Shown: positions 27,997 through 52,176 of the stretch, piece after piece | How the letters are laid out: every line of letters starts with the position of its first letter | Numbering within the stretch: the stretch's first letter is position 1 | Source of the DNA: an uncultured Bacillota bacterium | Lineage (GTDB): Bacteria; Bacillota; Clostridia; Acetivibrionales; DTU013 | Direction: 5' to 3' | Length of the DNA stretch: 64,000 nucleotides | Assembly (NCBI GenBank): GCA_942493145.1 | Contig: OW818679.1 | Coordinates: 399,566-463,565, forward strand | Notes under the pieces: generated by a model | The model's input: the letters and a program-made list of their open reading frames with translations, nothing else | Database searches by the model: none | Told to the model about the DNA's origin: nothing | Program-made: the position numbers and the translations under genes

Positions 27997-28225
27997 GACA
28001 ACATATCGCAACATCAAACAATATAAAGCAATATGCTCTATTCATTTAACTTCAGAAAATTCTTAAACTGAATACAGGTACATATGTTGCATCAAACATT
28101 TTGGATGCAACATTATGAAAACAGATTTGGGACAAATAGGCCGGGGGGTGGGTTGCACTGTGGCTGCAATTGTTCAGGTCAGACCTGTATCAGGTTCAAA
28201 ATGTTCAAAAGATTTATTCAGAACC

Positions 28226-29135
28226 ATGAAAAAAAACTGGGCGTTTTTTGCCATGCTGCTGCCCGGTGTAATTGTTTTGATAGTCAACAATTACATACCC
28301 ATGTTCGGTGTAGTAACAGCTTTAAAAAGTACAGATTTCATGGCAACTCTTTTTAACAGCCTGATCCAAAGTGATTGGGTAGGTTCGAATAATTTCAGGT
28401 TCTTCTTCGAAACGCCGTATGCCTATCAGACAACCCGCAATACCATCCTGTATAACCTTGCATTCATCATACTTGATCTGATAGTGCCGATATTTCTTGC
28501 AGTATTACTTAATGAGCTGCAGGGGAAGAAAACTCTCAAGGGTTTATCAGAACCTTATGTTTCTCCCATTTTTTCTTTCCTGGATTGTCGTGGGTTATCT
28601 TGCATACTCATTCTTCAGCATTGATTTTGGGTTTATCAACAGAGGCGTATTGGATGCACTGGGGTTGGAACGGGTGCAATGGTACTTTGAACCTAAGTAC
28701 TGGCCGTTCATCATTACTTTCTTTCAGATGTGGAAGTACACGGGGTATAACATTGTGGTCTATATTGCCGCCATCTCCGGCATCAACAATGAGTACTATG
28801 AGGCGGCGGCTATTGACGGAGCAAAGAAACTGCAGCAGATACGGTATATCACCCTTCCCATGCTGCAGCCAATGATGATCATCCTCACGCTGTTTGCGGT
28901 AGGAAGGATATTCAATGCGGATTTCGGTCTCTTTTTCAATGTTACCCGTAACAGCGGCGCACTGTATCAGACGACCAACGTCATTGATACCTATGTATAC
29001 AACGCGCTGCGCAATTCAAGTGATATTGGGATGACGGCTGCGGCAGGATTGTATCAGGCAGTGGTCGGCTGTATTACCGTCAGTATAGCAAACCTTGTTG
29101 TAAGAAAAATTGACAGTGAAAAAGCGCTGTTTTGA
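28226..29135 (+). pseudogene. LplB-type ABC sugar permease, frameshifted
   Basis: Two overlapping fragments (28115-28624 and 28497-29135). The EAA loop EAAAIDGAKKLQQIRYITLP is in the second frame. The length of 910 nt is not a multiple of 3. Confidence 0.85.
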
Positions 29136-29155
29136 GGAGGGGCCATATGTTCAGC

Positions 29156-30066
29156 AAAAAGACATTGGGAAATCCCAATCAGATATCGGGAGCAAGCAAT
29201 ATTCTTTTAAATCTGTTTTTCATCACATGCTTCTATTGCCTGCATCGCACCGATACTATTGGTTATCATCATATCGTTTAGTGACGAGATGGAAATCCTC
29301 AAAAACGGGTACAGCTTCTTCCCGAGATATTTTTTCAATGAAAAGGCATATGACTATATTGCCGCATCAGGGGAGGCTATTTTGCGAGCTTACGGGGTTT
29401 CACTGCTTGTTACGGTTATCGGGTCAATCCTCAGTCTGCTGATCATCAGCATGTATGCATATCCATTGGCCAGGCAGAGTTTTAAATACAAAACACTTTT
29501 TTCCTTTATTGCATACTTCACGATGATCTTTGGCGGAGGGCTCATCCCCTGGTATATGGTCTATACACACATCTTTAAAATAAAGGACAGCATATGGATC
29601 CTCATCTTTCCGTACCTTTTAAACGCATGGTTCGTATTGATCATGAGGACATTTTATAAGACTACCATACACGAATCCATCCTGGAATCCGCCAGAATTG
29701 ACGGAGCGGGAGAGTTCAGGACATTCTTTCAGATTGTACTTCCGCTGTGCCGCGCAGGGCTGGCTACAATAGGCCTGTTCTGTACGCTGAACTACTGGAA
29801 CGACTGGTATCTTCCGCTGGTTTTTGTCAACAATCCGAAGATGTACAATATCCAATACCTGATGTACCAGATACTTGCTGAGCATTCAGTTTCTGTGCAG
29901 AGCTCCTCACTTTTTCAGCAATCAATCCCTGGCGTTTAAGGATCTTCCCAGTGAGAGTGCCCGTATGGCGGTTGCGGTTTTGTCCATTGGGCCTATCATA
30001 TTTGCCTATCCGTTCTTTCAAAAATATTTTGTAAAAGGCCTTACAATAGGGGCTGTTAAAGGATGA
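29156..30066 (+). pseudogene. LplC-type ABC sugar permease, frameshifted
   Basis: The N-terminal piece starts at the ATG at 29156 (MFSKKTLGNP...). The core is 29259-29939, containing ESARIDGAGEFRTFFQIVLP. The C-terminal piece is 29875-30066. Three frames are used. Confidence 0.85.
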
Positions 30067-31831: not shown

Positions 31832-34288
31832 ATGAGATATGGTTATTTTGATGATGCAAATAGGGAATATGTTATTTCCACGCCCAAAACCCCATATCCA
31901 TGGATCAATTATCTGCGGATTCGAGGATTTCTTTTCGCTGGTATCAAGCACCGCGGGCGGTTACTGCTTTTACAAGGATGCAAGACTCCGGCGCATGACA
32001 AGGTACCGATACAACAGTGTTCCTATTGACAACGGGTACAGGTACTTCTGCATTAACGATGACGGGGATTTCTGGTCCCCGGGCTGGATGCCTGTCAGGA
32101 AGGACCTGAATCATTACTGAATGCAGACATGGGATGGGATATACTAAGGATATCCGGTGAGAGAGGCAACGGGATCCAGGTTGACATCTTGTACTGCTGG
32201 TGCCTTTAGATACAACTGTGAATTTACAAAAGGTTATGATTACAAATACCTGTAACGATAATAAAAATTTAAGGTTTTTTCTTTTGTTGAATTTTGTCTC
32301 TGGAATGCATATGACGACATGACCAATTTTCAGAGGAATTTTAGTACAGACGAGTTAGAAATTGTAGGAGCTCGGTCATTTATCACAAAACTGAGTACTA
32401 GGAAGACGCAATCCCTTATTCATTTTATTCCGCTAAATACTGGGATTAGTGCGGTTTGATACGGATAGGGACAGCTTTGTCGGGATTGCATAACGGGTTT
32501 GACGCTCCGAAGGCGGTTGTCGAAGGAAGGGCATCCAACTCCGTAGCAGACGGTTGGTCTCCCATCGCGTCACATTACATTGAGCTTGAACTTAAAGCAG
32601 GAGAGTCAAAGGAATTAGTGTTCATTCTGGGATATGCCGAGAATCCGGAAGAAGAGAAATGGGAAGCCAAAGGGATAAATAAAAAAAGCAGGGCAAAAGC
32701 AACGATACAGAGGTTCAATTCAACTGAGGCCGTAGATAAAGCTTTTTCTGGGCTTGGGGCATATTGGGAGGCGCTGCTGTCAAAATATACTGTAGAAACC
32801 TCCGGACGAAAAGCTTGAACAGGATGGTAAACATATGGAACCAGTATCAATGCATGGTCACCTTCAACATATCACGCAGCGCCTCGTATTTCGAATCGGG
32901 CGTTGGACGCGGGATGGGGTTCAGGGATTCAAACCAGGACTTGCTCGGGTTTGTCCATCAGATACCAAAGAGGGCAAAGAGAGAATACTGGATCTCGCCG
33001 CCACACAACTGGAAGATGGAGGAACTTACCACCAGTATCAGCCTTTGACGAAGAAGGGGAATCACGAGATAGGTGGCGATTTCAACGATGACCCCCTATG
33101 GCTGGTGTTGGCCACGGCTGCATATATAAAGGAGACAGGGGACTTCAACATTTTGGAGGAATATGCCCCATTCAATAATGATATCAATAAATCCGACAGC
33201 ATTTATGAGCATCTCAGGAGGGCGTTCAAACATGTGACGGAAAACCTTGGGCCCCATGGTCTTCCCCTGATAGGCAGGGCAGACTGGAATGACTGCCTGA
33301 ACCTGAACTGCTATTCTCAACACGCCTGATGAATCCTTCCAGACAACCACGTCAAGGGACGGAAGAGTGGCTGAATCTGTGCTGATTGCAGGTATGTTCA
33401 CCTTCATCGGTCCTGAGTTTGTACGGATGTGCGAATATCTGGGGAACGATGATGAGGCTAAACAGGCTAAAATGGACATTAAAAGGATGAAGGAGGCCAT
33501 CCTCAAGCATGGGTATGAAGGAGAGTGGTTCCTGAGGGCATACGACGACGCTGGGAAAAGGATTGGAAGTGCTGATAACGAAGAAGGAAAGATTTATATA
33601 GAACCACAGGGCTTCTGTGTTATGGCAGGAATCGGGACTGAAGACGGAAAGGCTATTAAAGCTCTTGATTCAGTAAAGAAAAACCTTGATACGCCATATG
33701 GTATGGTCTTGCTCAACCCCGGGTATACAAAGTATCACCACAACTTGGGAGAGATATCAACTTACCCTCCGGGATACAAGGAAAATGCCGGAATATTCTG
33801 CCACGTCAATCCCTGGATAGTTGCTGCAGAGACAGTCCTCGGGACGTGGGGACAGAGCGTTCGAATGCTATACGAGGATCACCCCGGCATACCTTGAAGA
33901 TATAAGCGAGATCCACAGGACTGAACCATATGTGTATGCGCAGATGATAGCCGGGAAGGATGCCAAGGAGGCACGGCGAAGCAAAAACTCCTGGTTGACC
34001 GGAACTGCGGCACGGAACTTCGTTGCAGTATCACAGTGGATTCTGGGGATCAAGCCGGGGTATGAGGGCCTTATGGTAGACCCCTGCATTCCTTCGGATT
34101 GGGAGGGCTTCACAGTTAAGAGATACTTCCGGAATGCCATGTACAATATATCCGTAAAGAACCCGGATAAGGTTTCCAAGGGTATAAGGAAGCTCACGGT
34201 TGACGGGAAAGAATTCATTGGGAATGTCCTGCCTGTGTTCAGGAATGGCAGAGAGCATTCCGTCGAGGTAGTCACGGGTAATGACTGA
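31832..34288 (+). pseudogene. GH94 cellobiose (cellodextrin/chitobiose) phosphorylase, heavily degraded
   Basis: The peptides [158 protein letters not shown] and NSWLTGTAA are collinear with cellobiose phosphorylase. They are spread over all three frames. My manual frame tracing finds at least eight breaks. Confidence 0.9.
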
Positions 34289-37632: not shown

Positions 37633-39227
<1,595 letters not shown>

Positions 39228-45439: not shown

Positions 45440-46277
45440 ATGGGTATTCTGAGAGAAACAATAAAAGTCGTTTCCAGGCGGCCATCGGTGTTGATAATTC
45501 CTGGAATCATTATGTTCATAGTATCGGCCATGAATATATATATCCCCGTTTTGCCGCTGGTAGCAGGGCTGGGAGGCATGACCGGAGGAAGCATATCCGA
45601 GGGTGTCGTTTCGGTGCTTCAGTTGATCGCCAGTCCGGAGCTATTGCCAATAATTATATTGGTGTTCATCGGAATGTGCCTTCTGGTATCCCCTCTTTGC
45701 CGGGATAATCCTTCCGGGATACTTTTCTATTACTGATGGAGCACTCCAGAACAGGGAAAAAGTACAGGGTGAATTCATATCAAGCTTAAAAGAGAACTTC
45801 CTGAAATTCTTCCTGATGTCAATAAGGAGTCTGGCATTTTTGGCAGCATATTCTATATTCCTTCTGGTCGCATGTATACCGGCGATTATAGTAACGAGGG
45901 CAGCAGGTGCAGAAGGATCAGGTCTGTTGCTGCCTTCGATATTTCTGGATTTTATAACTGTCGCAGTTATGTTTTTCAGTATCATGTTTTCCAGCGCGTA
46001 TATAATTTACTGGTATCCATCCACTTTGAAAAAGCTGAACCGGCCGTTCACCGCAGGTAAACACCTGGCCGATGCCCACTTCTGGAATATATCAGCAAGG
46101 CTTCTGGTATTCGGTATCATTTTCCTTGCTTATGTTTATATTACACTCAGTACTGAGATACTCCTGCTTAAATTCCTCATTGGCTGGATTCCAGGGTCAT
46201 TATTCATTGCTGTCTTTGTTGTGTTCGTATTCAAGACCTATAACGGTTACCTTGCTGAAGTCATGCAACAGGACTGA
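45440..46277 (+). pseudogene. Multi-pass membrane protein of unknown family; one frameshift
   Basis: ORF 45440-45736 and ORF 45816-46277 are collinear hydrophobic fragments. The second frame is already open from ~45690 (LFAGIILPGYFSITDGALQNREK...). The break lies around the C4 run in tcccctctttgcc. Confidence 0.6.
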
Positions 46278-46292
46278 TAATATGGCGTTTTG

Positions 46293-46998
46293 CTATTTGG
46301 CGAAATTATGCTTTCCTATTTTGATTACTATCTGCCTTGACCAAATCCATGAGCTTGTTGCGGTTGCAGGGTTGAAATAATAAACGCAGCCATACGAGGG
46401 ATCCCAGCCATTAAGTGCGTCCCGCGCCGCATTAAAGGAGCTTTGGTCGGGCGCCAGGTTTATCTGGCCGTCATCCACAGCGGTAAACGCACGGGGTTCA
46501 TATATGACGCCGGCAATGGTCTTGGGGAAACGGCGAATCGGCAGTCCGGTTAAGAACTACGGCGGCCACTGCGACCTTTCCTTCATAAGGCTCACCCCGT
46601 GCTTCTCCATGAATCAATCGAGCCAGCAGGTTTACATCTCCTGAAGAGCTGGAGCCTCCGCTCCTGGAGGGTGTGCTGGCTTGAGCCGGTAAACCCAGGG
46701 CTGCTAGAGTCTTGGGTCCTGATACTCCATCAACTGCCAGACCGTTTTTGGATTGAAATTTTTTTACTGCGCTAAATGTCTGATATCCATAAATACCATC
46801 CACAGAGCCATTATAATAACCCCAATTGGTCAACCTTGACTGTATGTTTATTACTTCCTGACCTGTAGATCCGTAATTTGACAATACCGCCCTGCTGTAG
46901 CCCATGAAATCCTGTATCTGAGACCTGTGTTAAAAAGCAAGCATAAGAGATACCGATATTGCAGCAAGTGTTACCATTAGTATGATTTTCCTCTTCAA
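46293..46998 (-). pseudogene. sleB: Spore cortex-lytic enzyme SleB/CwlJ family (PG_binding_1 + Hydrolase_2), nonsense codon plus frameshift
   Basis: The TTG start at 46998 follows the RBS GGAG. The signal peptide is LKRKIILMVTLAAISVSLMLAF. An in-frame TAA lies at 46932-46930. The PG-binding region follows ([22 protein letters not shown]). The hydrolase core [24 protein letters not shown] and the tail NGWDPSYGCVYYFNPATATSSW are in different frames, with the break near 46500. Confidence 0.8.
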
Positions 46999-48289: not shown

Positions 48290-49186
48290 ATGTATGATGT
48301 GATAATTATAGGAAGAGGGCCGGCAGGATTGTCGGCAGCATTATATACGGTAAGGTCCAACCTGAAGACACTTGTGATAGGGAAAAATGACAGCAGGTTG
48401 AGAAAAGCCGACAGGATAGACAACTACTATGCTTATTCAGAAACAGTCAGCGGAGAGACATTGCTGCTGGAAGGCGAAAAGCAGGTAAGGAGGCTTGGTT
48501 GCGAAATCGTTGAGGATGAAGTAATCGCCCTTGAAAAAGACGAAGTAATTAAAGTTGTTGCCTCAAAGCAGCAGTATCTTACGAAAGCTTTGCTGATTGC
48601 AACGGGTCAGTCTGTTAAGAAAATCAATGTTAGGAACATAACTGAATTTGAGGGCAGGGACATAAGCTACTGTAGTGCTTGTGACGGGTTTCTTCTATAA
48701 CAATCTGAAAGTGGGGCGTACTCGGACACAAGGACTATGCGGTGCATGAAGCTGTGGAGCTGCTGGCCAATACGAGGGATATGACCTATACGAGCGATAT
48801 ATACTAACGGAATGGCGCTGGATGGACCAAGGATGTATACAGCGATTTGGAGAAGAGGTTCAAAATCAATACGAAAGCTGTTGATAAGGTGGATGGCGGA
48901 GAAATTTTGCAGATGCAGAGGTTTTCAAGGATGGGACCAGGCGAGGAGCGGTGGACGGGCTGTTTTTGCCTGTGAAAGTGCCTCTGGATTGGATTTCGCC
49001 CGTAAGCTGGGGATCATTGCAGAAGGCAGCGATATAAAGGTGGATAAACGCCAACAGACCAACATCGAGGGGATATTTGCCGCAGGCGACTGCACAGGCG
49101 GACTCAGACAGGTATCGACCTCTGTAGGACAGGGAGCTGTGGCTGGAAAGGCGTTATCAGAATATATCAGGGAAATGGGAAACTGA
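48290..49186 (+). pseudogene. Thioredoxin-reductase-like FAD/NAD(P) oxidoreductase, multiply frameshifted
   Basis: MYDVIIIGRGPAGLSAALY (FAD GxGxxG) and the redox motif CSACDGF precede the first break at 48688-48695. The C-terminal GIFAAGDCTGGLRQVSTSVGQGAVAG is in ORF 48812-49186. The middle segment is in yet other frames. Confidence 0.8.
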
Positions 49187-49221
49187 AATATCCAGTTTCT
49201 CTGGGGAACTTTGATAAATTA

Positions 49222-49251
49222 TTGACAAGATGGTGAATATATCGTAATATT
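49222..49251 (+). promoter_or_regulatory. Sigma-A promoter with overlapping AT-rich inverted repeat (candidate ArsR-type operator)
   Basis: TTGACA (49222-49227), 17 nt, TAATAT (49245-49250). The inverted repeat AATAT-N6-ATATT (49236-49251) covers the -10 element. The direct repeat ATATAC-TG-ATATAC follows at 49255-49268. Confidence 0.45.
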
Positions 49252-49341
49252 TGAATATACTGATATACAACAGTTCGTTATAACATTAACAACTTGAATG
49301 AAAAATGTGTATTAAAATGTTTATTCGAAGGGGGAAAAATT

Positions 49342-51801
49342 ATGGGTATTAAAACTGTAATTGTGGGTGGAGTTGCCGGTGGCGCAAGTGCAGCTGCCAG
49401 ACTTCGCAGGCTCGATGAGAATGCGGAGATTGTCCTTTTTGAAAAGGGGGAATACATCTCCTTTGCCAATTGCGGCCTGCCCTATTATATAGGCGGGGTA
49501 ATCAAAGAAAAGGAAAAACTGGTGGTTCAGACCCCTGAAGCAATGAAGGAAAGATTCAACCTGGACGTCAGGATCAACAGTGAAGTACTTAGTATAAATA
49601 CAGCAGAAAAATATGTTGAGGTATATAACAGCAAGGAAAACAGGAAATACACTGAAACCTATGACAAGCTGGTCCTGTCTCCGGGAGCGGAACCGGTAAT
49701 ACCGGATATACCTGGAATAAGGTCAAAGAGGATATTCACACTGAGAAACATTCCCGACACCTACAGGATAAAGGAGTTTGTAGACGATAGAAAACCGGAA
49801 AGGGCGCTTGTTGTAGGAGCAGGATTTATCGGGCTGGAGGTTGCCGAGAATTTGCACCAAATCGGCGTGAAGGTTACAGTCGTTGAACTTGCCGATCATG
49901 TAATCGGTCCTCTTGATTATGAAATGGCAGCTATCGTACATCAGCACCTGAAAACCAAAAACATGGAGTTCTATTTGAAGGATTCCGTAAAGGCATTCAA
50001 TGATACCGGAGCGGGAGTCATTGTGGAATTGTCGAGCGGAAGGCTGATCAATACGGATATGGTGATCATGGGCATAGGTGTCAGGCCGGAAGCCAGAATT
50101 GCGGCCGAGGCGGGCATCAAACTAGGTACTACAGGCGGAATCCTTGTTGATGAATATATGAGGACATCGGATATAAATGTTTATGCTGTCGGCGACGCAG
50201 TGGAAATTAAGGATTTCATCAGCGGGAAGCCCGGCCTGATACCACTTGCCGGACCAGCCAACAAGCAGGGCAGGATTGCAGCCAACAACATCTGCGGACT
50301 GGAGGAGACATATCCCGGAACACAGGGAACTTCCATAGTCAAAGTTTTTGATATAACAGTTGCAGTCACGGGCAACAACGAAAGGATACTGAACAGAAAT
50401 GGTATAGAATATGAGAAATCCTTTACCCATTCGCCCTCCCATGCAGGGTATTATCCCGGGGCTATTCCCATGTCAATTAAACTGCTTTTCGGCAAAAACG
50501 ACGGTAAGGTGCTAGGGGCCCAGATAATTGGTTATGAGGGTGTTGACAAGAGGATAGATATCATATCAACCGCCATCAGAGCAGGCATGACCGTACATGA
50601 CCTTGAGAAGCTGGAGCTGGCCTATGCGCCTCCATACTCGTCTGCCAAGGACCCGGTCAATATTGCAGGCTTTACGGCTGCAAACATACTTAAAGGGGAT
50701 TGCAGGGTGTTTCAATGGCAGGATGTAGCCTCAGTGGATCCAGGTAAGTCCTTACTGCTGGATGTCCGTACCAGTATGGAATACGATCTTGGAAGCATAG
50801 AAGGCGCCTTGAATATTCCGATAGACGTACTCAGGGAGCGTATCGGTGAACTTCCCAAAGACAAGGAGATACTGGTATTCTGCCAGGTGGGCCTCCGCGG
50901 CTATGTTGCCTGTCGGTTGCTCATGCAGAAGGGCTTCGATGTCAGGAACCTGAGTGGAGGGTACAAGACCTACCAGCTGGCTGTTGAGAAGCAATCAAAC
51001 GAAGATATATACCAGACTGTCAGGATTATGAAGGATGACCTTATCAAGGCCGCCAGCGATGAGGATGAGGAGGGAAGGAAACACAGTATTTCTGTAGACG
51101 CCTGTGGACTGCAATGCCCCGGACCCATCCTTCAGACCTACAATGCCATAAAATCCATGGGGAATGGCGATGTGCTGGAGATAAAAGCTACTGATCCCGG
51201 TTTTCAGACAGATATCAAGGTGTGGTGTGAGAAGACCGGCAACAGGCTGTTGGATTTGAAATTCGAGAACAATACCTTTACCGCCTTGATTAAAAAGGCA
51301 GCAGCCAAAACCTCTGTGCCAGGTGAGATCAGGAATGGGAAAACAATGATTGTGTTCAGCGGAGATCTGGATAAGGCCATTGCATCCTTTATAATAGCTA
51401 ACGGCGCGGCGGCAATGGGCAGGAATATTACCATGTTCTTTACCTTCTGGGGCCTTAATATTCTTCGGAAGCCAGAAAAGGTCAAAGTGAGAAAGGATTT
51501 CCTTTCAAAGATGTTTGGGATGATGATGCCGAGAGGATCTGTAAAGCTGGGATTATCCCGGATGAATATGGGCGGTATGGGCGGCAAGCTTATAAGGTAT
51601 ATCATGAAGAAAAAGAACGTCTCATCATTGGAAGAGCTTATGAGTCAGGCAAAGGAAAATGGCGTCAGGCTGGTGGCATGCAATATGTCGATGGACATAA
51701 TGGGCATCAGGAAGGAGGAGCTTATTGACGGCGTTGAAATTGGTGGAGTCGCTTCAATGCTTGGTAGCGCCGAGGAGTCGGATATGAGCCTCTTCATTTA
51801 G
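49342..51801 (+). CDS. Four-domain fusion: CoA-disulfide/persulfide reductase (pyridine nucleotide-disulfide oxidoreductase) + rhodanese + TusA/SirA-like + DsrE/DrsE-like
   Basis: GGVAGGASAA (FAD) and the active-site SFANCGLPYY mark the CoADR domain. The rhodanese loop is FCQVGLRG. The TusA motif is CGLQCPGP. The C-terminal DsrE-like domain has MIVFSGDLDKAIASFIIANGAAAMG...VACNMSMD. The RBS GAAGGGGG precedes the ATG at 49342. The ORF track starts upstream at 49294. Confidence 0.85.
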   Translation: MGIKTVIVGGVAGGASAAARLRRLDENAEIVLFEKGEYISFANCGLPYYIGGVIKEKEKLVVQTPEAMKERFNLDVRINSEVLSINTAEKYVEVYNSKENRKYTETYDKLVLSPGAEPVIPDIPGIRSKRIFTLRNIPDTYRIKEFVDDRKPERALVVGAGFIGLEVAENLHQIGVKVTVVELADHVIGPLDYEMAAIVHQHLKTKNMEFYLKDSVKAFNDTGAGVIVELSSGRLINTDMVIMGIGVRPEARIAAEAGIKLGTTGGILVDEYMRTSDINVYAVGDAVEIKDFISGKPGLIPLAGPANKQGRIAANNICGLEETYPGTQGTSIVKVFDITVAVTGNNERILNRNGIEYEKSFTHSPSHAGYYPGAIPMSIKLLFGKNDGKVLGAQIIGYEGVDKRIDIISTAIRAGMTVHDLEKLELAYAPPYSSAKDPVNIAGFTAANILKGDCRVFQWQDVASVDPGKSLLLDVRTSMEYDLGSIEGALNIPIDVLRERIGELPKDKEILVFCQVGLRGYVACRLLMQKGFDVRNLSGGYKTYQLAVEKQSNEDIYQTVRIMKDDLIKAASDEDEEGRKHSISVDACGLQCPGPILQTYNAIKSMGNGDVLEIKATDPGFQTDIKVWCEKTGNRLLDLKFENNTFTALIKKAAAKTSVPGEIRNGKTMIVFSGDLDKAIASFIIANGAAAMGRNITMFFTFWGLNILRKPEKVKVRKDFLSKMFGMMMPRGSVKLGLSRMNMGGMGGKLIRYIMKKKNVSSLEELMSQAKENGVRLVACNMSMDIMGIRKEELIDGVEIGGVASMLGSAEESDMSLFI

Positions 51802-51850
51802 TAAAAAATCAATAAGAATATTGGGAGTGCTTGGTTTGAATGATATAAAT

Positions 51851-52123
51851 ATGAAGGAATATGATGCAAAGGCAGAAAAGCTCAAGGCAATTGCCCATCC
51901 TTACAGGCTTTGCATAATCAAAGGACTGATGGATAAGGCATGTAATGTGACAGGGATACAGGAATGCCTCAATATACCGCAGTCTACAGTGTCGCAGCAT
52001 CTTGCAAAGCTTAAGGCTGCCGGGATAATAGAGGGAAGGCGCTGTGGTCTTGAAATATGCTACAGTGTTATAGATGAAGAAATAAAAGATATAATCAGAT
52101 CATTATTCAGTGTCGTCGCCTGA
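51851..52123 (+). CDS. ArsR/SmtB-family HTH transcriptional regulator (Cys-rich)
   Basis: LKAIAHPYRLCIIKGL...STVSQHLAKLKAAGII is the ArsR winged-helix signature. There are five Cys residues. The start is uncertain: TTG at 51821 or 51836, or ATG at 51851. Confidence 0.8.
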   Translation: MKEYDAKAEKLKAIAHPYRLCIIKGLMDKACNVTGIQECLNIPQSTVSQHLAKLKAAGIIEGRRCGLEICYSVIDEEIKDIIRSLFSVVA

Positions 52124-52140
52124 TGTACAGGCAACGGTCA

Positions 52141-52176
52141 AAAGGCGTGAGGGCTAGTTACCTCACGCCTTTTCTA
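52141..52176 (+). terminator. Rho-independent terminator after the ArsR gene
   Basis: AAAGGCGTGAGG pairs with CCTCACGCCTTT, followed by TCT. Confidence 0.7.

Follow-up and report, generated by a model that had tools for sequence, protein, structure and literature searches.

What tells an anaerobe with no CstR or SqrR that it faces reactive sulfur or disulfide stress? The question is raised by a locus in a 64,000-nucleotide (nt) stretch of DNA (the window; contig OW818679.1, positions 399,566 to 463,565) from an uncultured Bacillota bacterium, where the gene of a four-domain fusion enzyme, a CoA-disulfide reductase (CoADR)-like flavoprotein joined to rhodanese, TusA and DsrE modules, is followed by the gene of a small ArsR-family regulator. 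Coordinates are positions in the window unless marked C1 (contig of the source genome, 4.34 Mb), and the part considered here, 48290-52176, is delimited by the start codon of a TrxB-like gene at one end and by the terminator of the operon at the other. From sequence comparison, we favor on balance the reading of this locus as an autoregulated two-gene operon (promoter-operator, fusion gene, arsR and terminator) whose enzyme would be an NAD(P)H- and FAD-dependent sulfane-sulfur reductase of the CoADR-RHD/Npsr/CoAPR kind, with a CstA-like carrier train at its C terminus, under the control of the ArsR repressor. The fusion architecture is widespread and already in print, the relay logic of the four-domain enzyme having been proposed in 2012, and the enzyme brings nothing new in kind. 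The one mildly interesting item is the subfamily of the regulator together with its operator: a near-invariant cysteine triad, linkage to such enzymes in 63 of 80 loci and a sharply conserved operator make it a defined, testable candidate sensor.

Domains and relatives of the fusion enzyme

The fusion gene (49342-51801, plus strand) is an intact open reading frame (ORF) of 819 amino acids (aa) counted from the ATG at 49342, which is preceded by GGGGG at 6 to 7 nt; an alternative TTG start at 49294 would give 835 aa. A preliminary description of this DNA, made from the letters alone, had seen CoADR, rhodanese, TusA and DsrE parts in a single polypeptide, and Pfam annotation places all four, every domain above its gathering score. 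The CoADR-like flavoprotein occupies residues 4-443 (nt 49351-50670, with Cys44), with Pyr_redox_2 at residues 4-301 (3.4e-63) and Pyr_redox_dim at 332-435 (4.4e-15). It is followed by the rhodanese domain at residues 468-545 (nt 50743-50976, with Cys514; 1.7e-14), TusA at 584-652 (nt 51091-51297, with Cys592; 5.3e-21), and DsrE2/DrsE_2 at 665-818 (nt 51334-51795, with Cys780; 2.6e-65). The Pfam check proposed for the TusA and DsrE modules thus put both above cut-off, and the motifs listed earlier (SFANCGLPYY, CQVGLRG, and CGLQCPGP) are all found in the protein, which combines the pyridine nucleotide-disulfide oxidoreductase fold with a single redox cysteine in an SFxNCxLPY motif.

To see which cysteines are kept, the window protein was aligned with 94 distinct, stop-free four-domain homologues (51-75% identity), drawn from 99 loci with an unbroken match, of which 5 were left out as duplicates or for containing stops. 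Cys44, Cys514, Cys592, and Cys780 are invariant in all 95 sequences, and two further cysteines of the TusA domain, Cys588 and Cys629, are kept in 89 and 86 of them, respectively. No module has therefore lost the cysteine that forms a persulfide or takes part in redox chemistry, a prerequisite of a functioning relay.

Among solved structures, residues 4-547 align without large gaps to 3icr (3.9e-198), 3nta (1.2e-183), and 8a56 (2e-160), that is, over the full length of CoADR-RHD from B. anthracis (3ICR/3ICS), Npsr from Shewanella loihica (3NTA), and CoAPR from E. faecalis (8A56). The fusion shares an identical ISFANCGLPYYIGG motif and the rhodanese cysteine with these enzymes, and its CQVGLRG is aligned with CQLGMRG of 3icr. 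What sets the window protein apart from these two-domain enzymes are ca. 270 extra residues, corresponding to TusA and DsrE2. This tail matches the DsrE-type structure 3pnx (2.5e-35), with AC aligned to AC, and the TusA-type structures 1pav (4.9e-9) and 1dcj/3lvj (1.5e-5), with CPGP at 592-595 aligned to the CPGP of 1pav; C-P-x-P is the name given to the conserved cysteine motif of TusA.

The database search returned at least 7986 scored homologues. Each of the 120 best has the Pfam families rhodanese, TusA, and DrsE_2, and most are called "CoA-disulfide reductase." A relative is encoded by 414 stretches of species-representative genomes. Of the 80 best loci, 55 extend to the DsrE end; the other 25 end near residue 550, being either two-domain forms or matches that span only the first two domains. 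In one metagenome-assembled relative (L031:4001-6469), the four-domain gene is split into ORFs of 327 and 474 aa, which is probably also an assembly or frameshift issue. The source genome itself contains a second CoADR-rhodanese gene at C1:932843-934504, a two-domain form of 553 aa that is 59% identical to the fusion over residues 1-599; a response-regulator-like ORF lies before it and a 155-aa ORF after it, and no ArsR gene of the subfamily described below adjoins it.

Proteins of this architecture have already been described, in papers from which we draw on excerpts here and below. BF638R_0572 of B. fragilis has the four domains in the same order (TIGR03385, PF00581, PF01206, and PF13686); it is repressed by the MarR-type regulator BmoR, is expressed 50-fold higher in a bmoR mutant, and its loss leads to greater sensitivity to diamide (PMC6158253). 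For Pcar_0429 of P. carbinolicus, also with the four domains in identical order, the authors proposed a relay in which persulfide moves from rhodanese to TusA and DsrE and is reduced by way of FAD and NADH, and they considered the protein a possible S0 reductase (PMC3543383). We liken both to the window fusion by domain content, since what the excerpts give is domains, a phenotype, and a proposal. The earlier view of the four-domain relay as lacking an assigned role has to be revised, given the roles proposed for Pcar_0429 and the mutant phenotype of BF638R_0572; it holds insofar as the excerpts contain no enzymology. BF638R_0572 differs from the window fusion in its regulator, MarR-type in one case and ArsR-type in the other, and the same applies to CoAPR, which is derepressed by CstR (PMC9405070). 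A two-cysteine mechanism with a swinging pantetheine arm was described for this two-domain enzyme (PMC9405070). The other close parallel, again by domain content, is CstA of S. aureus, a rhodanese-TusA-DsrE fusion with the three carrier modules in one chain, in which persulfide is reported to pass from rhodanese to TusA (PMC9918477). Unlike the window fusion, CstA has no flavoprotein reductase. Its regulator, CstR, is kin to CsoR.

A cysteine triad in the ArsR regulator

The arsR gene (51851-52123, plus strand) encodes a 90-aa winged-helix protein of the ArsR/SmtB family (Pfam HTH_5, 7.1e-11; NCBIfam HTH_metalloreg, 80.8 bits with a cut-off of 55). Its start is uncertain, since in-frame TTG codons at 51836 (8 nt after GGGAG) and 51821 are also possible. 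As previously described, the protein has five cysteines, C21, C31, C39, C65, and C70 in the 90-aa numbering. An AlphaFold 2 model (pLDDT 93.4) shows helices at residues 2-14, 17-28, 33-40, 44-56, and 76-87 plus a beta hairpin. In this model, alpha2 (17-28) contains C21, a beta-bridge immediately ahead of alpha3 (33-40) holds C31, and C39 belongs to the final turn of alpha3, after which the recognition helix (44-56) follows directly.

Three of the five cysteines are conserved. In the window protein and the 18 regulators found beside four-domain genes, C21 is present in 17/19, C31 in 16/19, and C39 in 18/19, compared with 9/19 for C70 and 1/19 for C65 (the window protein only). The 80 loci fetched with the regulator profile gave the same picture, with C21 in 79, C31 in 75, and C39 in all 80, while C70 was found in 34 and C65 in a single one.

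The preliminary description had found the regulator reminiscent of the persulfide sensors BigR and SqrR. Persulfide-sensing ArsR proteins (SqrR/BigR/HlyU, cluster 4 of a sequence similarity network), which also neighbor sulfurtransferase genes, are defined by a pair of cysteines in alpha2 and alpha5 (PMC10509353). In the window protein, the alpha2 cysteine column of SqrR/BigR is occupied by Lys24, its own alpha2 cysteine standing three residues earlier, and there is no alpha5 or C-terminal cysteine: none follows C70, and the chain ends at residue 90. The NCBIfam BigR model gives 56.7 bits with a cut-off of 155. With the alpha2/alpha5 cysteines absent, the regulator is not of the SqrR/BigR type. 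The search for conserved sensing cysteines therefore had a divided outcome, this pair being absent and C21, C31, and C39 being kept in 75 to 80 of the 80 loci. Two other known types were considered and rejected. RexT-type peroxide sensors have two proximal (vicinal) cysteines in alpha3 (PMC10509353), but here the helix has C31 at one end and C39 at the other, eight positions away, and there is no vicinal pair. The canonical As(III)-sensing ArsR cluster is marked by a C-(V/A)-C motif in alpha3 (PMC10509353), and no CXC occurs in any of the 18 aligned sequences.

The closest solved structure is that of PagR from B. anthracis (2zkz; 2.6e-15 from the sequence alone, 9.1e-27 from a profile of 18 sequences). 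PagR resembles the window regulator in length but has Lys, Leu, and Ile in the columns of the three conserved cysteines, and the NCBIfam PagR model gives 75.1 bits with a cut-off of 170. The next profile matches were the ArsR protein 8qkf, BigR (2.2e-20), SqrR (1.2e-18), NolR, YgaV, and HlyU (5.7e-17), so that SqrR/BigR/HlyU, with the same fold and small size, form the second-closest group of solved relatives. RexT (7txm) is distant, at 1.1e-7 and rank 29 of the 46 profile matches listed.

The idea of a thiol-based repressor survives the failure of the SqrR/BigR analogy. We tentatively propose, as a possibility that could well prove wrong, that the repressor represents an uncharacterized class of thiol-based ArsR sensors, PagR-like, of ca. 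90 aa and with the triad C21/C31/C39, and that this class is committed to CoADR-rhodanese(-TusA-DsrE) reductases in Bacillota and outside them. Such a protein might sense sulfane sulfur or CoA persulfide by means of a bridge between alpha2 and alpha3, beside the recognition helix, and then release a 13-2-13 operator, ATATCGTAATATT-N2-AATATANNGATAT. The bridge would differ from that of SqrR/BigR (alpha2-alpha5) and from that of RexT (vicinal, in alpha3). In the literature searched, supplements aside, we found no paper on the ArsR regulator of a four-domain gene, on its subfamily, or on its operator.

Linkage of regulator and enzyme

The functional link between ArsR and the fusion suggested in the preliminary description is supported by co-occurrence from both sides. 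Starting from the enzyme, ArsR adjoins the fusion on the same strand in 19 of the 55 four-domain loci, downstream in 7, as in the window, and upstream in 12. Starting from the regulator, a CoADR-family gene lies within 243 bp on the same strand in 63 of the 80 regulator-profile loci; 59 of these genes reach the DsrE end, three are two-domain forms, and one is cut by the end of the contig. The two sets of loci share contigs (e.g., L025 is the same as L094 and L033 the same as L097) and are therefore not independent. Among the four-domain loci that have no ArsR, some have a divergent Crp-family gene (L058 and L065) or a divergent TRi-type (NAD(P)H-independent thioredoxin reductase-like) gene (L039 and L049), and others, such as the Anoxybacillus group, have no regulator among the nearest neighbors.

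Operon structure and candidate operator

Fusion gene and arsR are separated by 49 nt, a gap in which a pattern scan of the window found no terminator-like site. Past arsR, an intrinsic terminator with a 13-bp stem is predicted at 52140-52175 (plus strand). It is absent from the listing of the pattern scan and was confirmed through folding: the hairpin at 52140-52173 has a free energy of -23.1 kcal/mol (z = -7.0), and 0 of 200 shuffled sequences fold as well.

Upstream of the fusion gene, the promoter and the overlapping AT-rich inverted repeat noted previously are both present, and the repeat is conserved in relatives. The sigma-70-type promoter (49222-49250, plus strand) consists of a -35 box TTGACA (49222-49227), a 17-nt spacer, and a -10 box TAATAT (49245-49250), matching 10 of the 12 consensus positions. 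The repeat, ATATCGTAATATTTGAATATACTGATAT at 49239-49266, is a perfect 28-bp palindrome of the form ATATC-N3-ATATT-N2-AATAT-N3-GATAT, without strand, which overlaps the -10 box and the likely transcription start. We take it as the candidate operator. At up to 2 mismatches, its pattern has no other match in the window, and 0 of 100 shuffles match; nor does the whole 4.34-Mb genome hold a further match below 3 mismatches. The palindrome-like site that lies within the 3' end of the TrxB-like gene (49155-49170) is not picked up by this pattern when up to 2 mismatches are allowed. One site with 3 mismatches was found at C1:977111-977138, between a thioredoxin gene and an intact TRi paralogue; we rejected it as an additional operator, since it has no CG core and lies in AT-rich DNA, which makes a chance match probable.

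The same element was found in both gene orders, with the regulator upstream or downstream of the enzyme. When the left arm ATATCGTAWTATT was searched with up to 2 mismatches within 260 nt upstream of the first gene, it appeared in 51 of the 63 loci with regulator and CoADR gene and in 8 of the 17 loci without the enzyme. The background was 107/2094 among all 280-nt windows taken from these loci, true sites included, and 22/221 in their AT-richest decile. In all, the arm recurs upstream of 64 other distinct loci, and an alignment of the 65 distinct sites yields TTGACaa-N-TATATCGTAATATTa.aATATA..gATAta as consensus; most arm positions carry 1.4-1.9 bits, and TTGACA and the -10 box are in the same register in most of the aligned sites. 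Their layout, 12-2-12-like, is the usual one for operators of ArsR/SmtB proteins. General traits of the family are thus found at the locus, namely a winged helix-turn-helix protein of ca. 90 aa and a palindrome over the -10 box of its own operon, and an ArsR dimer is predicted to bind at 49239-49266. More divergent regulators (L012, L041/L046, and L038) have other palindromes.

Proposed mechanism and alternative explanations

From the domain content, the invariant cysteines, the linkage in both directions, and the conservation of the operator, we infer a scheme for the substrate, the direction of sulfur flow, the inducer, and the binding to DNA. Cys780 of DsrE2, Cys592 of TusA, or both would take up sulfane sulfur as cysteine persulfide, the donor being a persulfide (low-molecular-weight or protein), polysulfide, or thiosulfate, and the sulfur would next be handed to Cys514 of the rhodanese domain. 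From there it would pass to Cys44 beside the flavin, probably via a tightly bound CoA acting as the swinging pantetheine arm proposed for CoAPR, and be reduced at Cys44 to H2S with electrons from NAD(P)H. As for control, an ArsR dimer on the 28-bp palindrome over the -10 box would shut the operon off, and modification of C21/C31/C39 would release it from DNA; sulfane sulfur seems the likeliest modifier, with disulfide or oxidative stress less likely.

Several observations weigh against a sulfane-sulfur reductase under a persulfide-responsive ArsR. The CoA-disulfide reductase equivalog of NCBIfam, TIGR03385, is not reached (536.8 bits, cut-off 578.8), which is why we place the fusion with the CoADR-RHD/Npsr/CoAPR kind and not with plain CoADR; the other two NCBIfam CoADR models stay likewise under their cut-offs, as does the DsrE2 equivalog (100.1, cut-off 210). 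The cysteine pair that all proven persulfide sensors of the ArsR family share is absent from the regulator, 36 of the 55 four-domain loci have no adjacent ArsR, and 12 of the 63 loci with regulator and CoADR gene have no operator match at up to 2 mismatches. The remaining observations fit better with a defense against disulfide or oxidative stress, in which the enzyme's main task is to keep CoA (or protein-CoA and other disulfides) reduced once the cell has met O2 or thiol oxidants, and in which the ArsR protein, like RexT or CyeR, detects oxidants by forming a Cys-Cys disulfide. BF638R_0572 is controlled by an oxidative-stress regulator, with the 50-fold increase in the bmoR mutant and the diamide sensitivity mentioned above (PMC6158253). 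The peroxide-sensing cluster of ArsR proteins sits near NADH oxidoreductase genes (PMC10509353). Moreover, some loci have rubrerythrin (L007 and L073), AhpC/thioredoxin (L044), or TRi-type reductases (four-domain loci L025, L031, L039, L044, and L049) as neighbors, and TRi has been linked to disulfide stress and found to be O2 induced (PMC5627308). However, plain CoA-disulfide reduction needs no three sulfur-carrier domains with invariant persulfide-forming cysteines, the regulator has no vicinal cysteine pair, and BigR and SqrR are much closer to its profile than RexT. We consider this defense role rather unlikely, if by no means negligible.

A catabolic function would make the enzyme a dissimilatory S0 or polysulfide reductase, serving as an electron sink that re-oxidizes NAD(P)H in fermentation. 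This role was proposed for the four-domain Pcar_0429 (PMC3543383), sulfur respiration was proposed for the close two-domain relative Npsr (PMC7969121), and homologues are present in Thermoanaerobacterium thermosulfurigenes (L036). Nevertheless, tight repression of a single-gene unit by a thiol-based repressor of its own suggests a module for detoxification or stress, the window encodes no membrane or energy-coupling partner next to the fusion, and the genome has the second CoADR-rhodanese gene, all of which makes a dissimilatory role improbable. Even less probable, to the point of being hard to credit, is that the regulator is a metal or metalloid sensor, the three cysteines forming an S3 site like that of As(III)-sensing ArsR and the operon answering stress by thiophilic metals or metalloids. 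Trigonal thiolate coordination by three cysteines is known in ArsR proteins, the conserved triad would fit it, and the HTH_metalloreg model is passed. But the CXC motif, the mark of the canonical As(III) cluster (PMC10509353), is missing from alpha3, and the neighborhoods point elsewhere: the 101 immediate neighbors of the four-domain loci include one ArsC-family protein (L044) and zero metal transporters, the 60 neighbors of fusion-less regulator loci include one Nramp-family transporter (L146, the second gene downstream and on the opposite strand), and a sulfur enzyme stands beside 63 of the 80 relatives of the regulator.

The TrxB-like gene and the reliability of the surrounding sequence

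Upstream of the promoter, a TrxB-like gene (48290-49186, plus strand) with the motif CSACDGF was earlier taken for a dead reductase that the fusion might have replaced as electron entry point. Its frame is indeed interrupted six times in the sequence as deposited. NCBIfam TRX_reduct matches both pieces, under its cut-off, and a frameshift-aware alignment to the intact homologues in L025 and L031 located +1 shifts at 48687, 48715, and 48797 and -1 shifts at 48824, 48919, and 48966. All six fall within 280 bp of the pseudo-NADPH domain and sum to zero, with undamaged flanks, and at least three are in runs of G or T (judged by eye). The corrected reading contains no stop and is identical to L025 at 175 of 298 positions (59%).

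The gene is probably of the TRi type, as judged from its motifs. The best solved match of the intact L025 homologue is 5nii (3.3e-66, 309 aa), which we take to be DvTRi of Desulfovibrio vulgaris, the matching length of 309 residues being the sole check of this identity. In the L025 and L031 homologues, the GxGxxA signature that marks NAD(P)H-dependent reductases is missing and TNG(K/M) occupies the HRRD position, and the corrected window reading has CSAC and TNGM where L031 has TNGK; the window gene differs from TRi in that its frame is broken six times in this assembly. In TRi proteins, TQ/NGK stands in place of HRRD (PMC5627308).

The breaks are not confined to this gene. In the window between 28 and 47 kb, Pfam identifies further genes split across frames, namely two ABC permeases, a GH94 (cellobiose-phosphorylase-type) gene whose four frame-shifted pieces continue one another in profile coordinates, a SleB-like cell-wall hydrolase, and a prolyl-tRNA synthetase (ProRS). 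The ProRS gene (37714-38890; C1:437279-438455) is the only one in a genome that is 97.8% complete: proS_fam_I matches only at this locus, in three pieces with one TGA, and proS_fam_II has no match above 42 bits in the genome, while intact ProRS genes score above 600 bits in five of six relatives. The window ProRS is nearly identical to those of the relatives over the first ca. 363 residues; it has a TGA at 37999, +1 shifts at 38255, ca. 38495, 38803, and 38846, and a loss of ca. 90 codons. No cell lives without ProRS, which marks this patch of the assembly as unreliable. The share of bases in stop-free frames of 200 codons or more is 82.6% genome-wide and 34-53% in the window between 24 and 48 kb, and 10 of the 30 5-kb bins with the lowest ORF coverage (868 bins in total) fall in C1 425-545 kb, which is 2.8% of the genome.

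We therefore regard the "dead" state of the TrxB-like gene as quite likely an artifact of sequencing or assembly. A genuine pseudogene, with the TRi copy lost and its paralogue relied on, is unlikely. It would account for the six frameshifts as deposited, and two other genes could stand in for it: an intact TRi-type paralogue of 303 aa (C1:977215-978126), divergent from a WCGPC thioredoxin gene (the pair spanning C1:976756-978126), and, at C1:1746799-1747698, a canonical TrxB-like gene. The gap of ca. 270 bp in ProRS also counts in its favor and against our preference, being untypical of homopolymer errors and hard to blame on base-calling alone, so that part of the damage in the patch could be real. 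However, three +1 shifts followed by three -1 shifts restore the frame exactly, the corrected frame is stop-free with 59% identity to its orthologue, and the same patch breaks the sole ProRS, which is impossible as the true state of a living cell. The apparent pseudogenes at 24-49 kb of the window should thus not be read as biology before the sequence is verified.

The frameshifted state noted earlier stands for the deposited sequence, then, and the idea of a replacement has to be dropped: the breaks look like errors, the genome has the intact paralogue, and an intact TRi-type gene and the fusion coexist side by side in L025 and L031 (the fusion being unbroken in L025 and in two ORFs in L031). 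Besides, the candidate operator lies downstream of the TrxB-like gene, which makes this gene and the fusion separate units.

As to the extent of the damage, the split genes in the window lie at 28115-29939, 32456-34288, 45440-46277, and 46293-46905, and a membrane protein may be split too. ORF coverage is also low at C1:475-495 kb and 530-545 kb.

Neighborhoods of the regulator without the fusion

The 17 regulator loci (of 80) that have no CoADR-family gene belong to several groups. Three of them, L100, L104, and L110, come from close relatives and are syntenic with the window, with the order RNaseH_like (PF04308), ArsR, and a Germane-domain gene and with the fusion absent; the Germane-domain gene directly follows ArsR in L104 and L110 and comes after a DeoC gene in L100. 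All three have a TrxB-like gene or match upstream. In L025 and L031, an RNaseH_like gene stands between the TrxB-like gene and the fusion, and it is missing in the window.

In a further group (L131, L134, L135, L142, and L147), fusion-less regulators with the cysteine triad are located directly downstream of spo0A. Three of these loci (L134, L142, and L147) have an unknown ORF of 124-131 aa after the regulator, followed by veg. Finally, in the fusion-less locus L163, the regulator is followed by two Sulf_transp (YeeE/YedE-like) genes.

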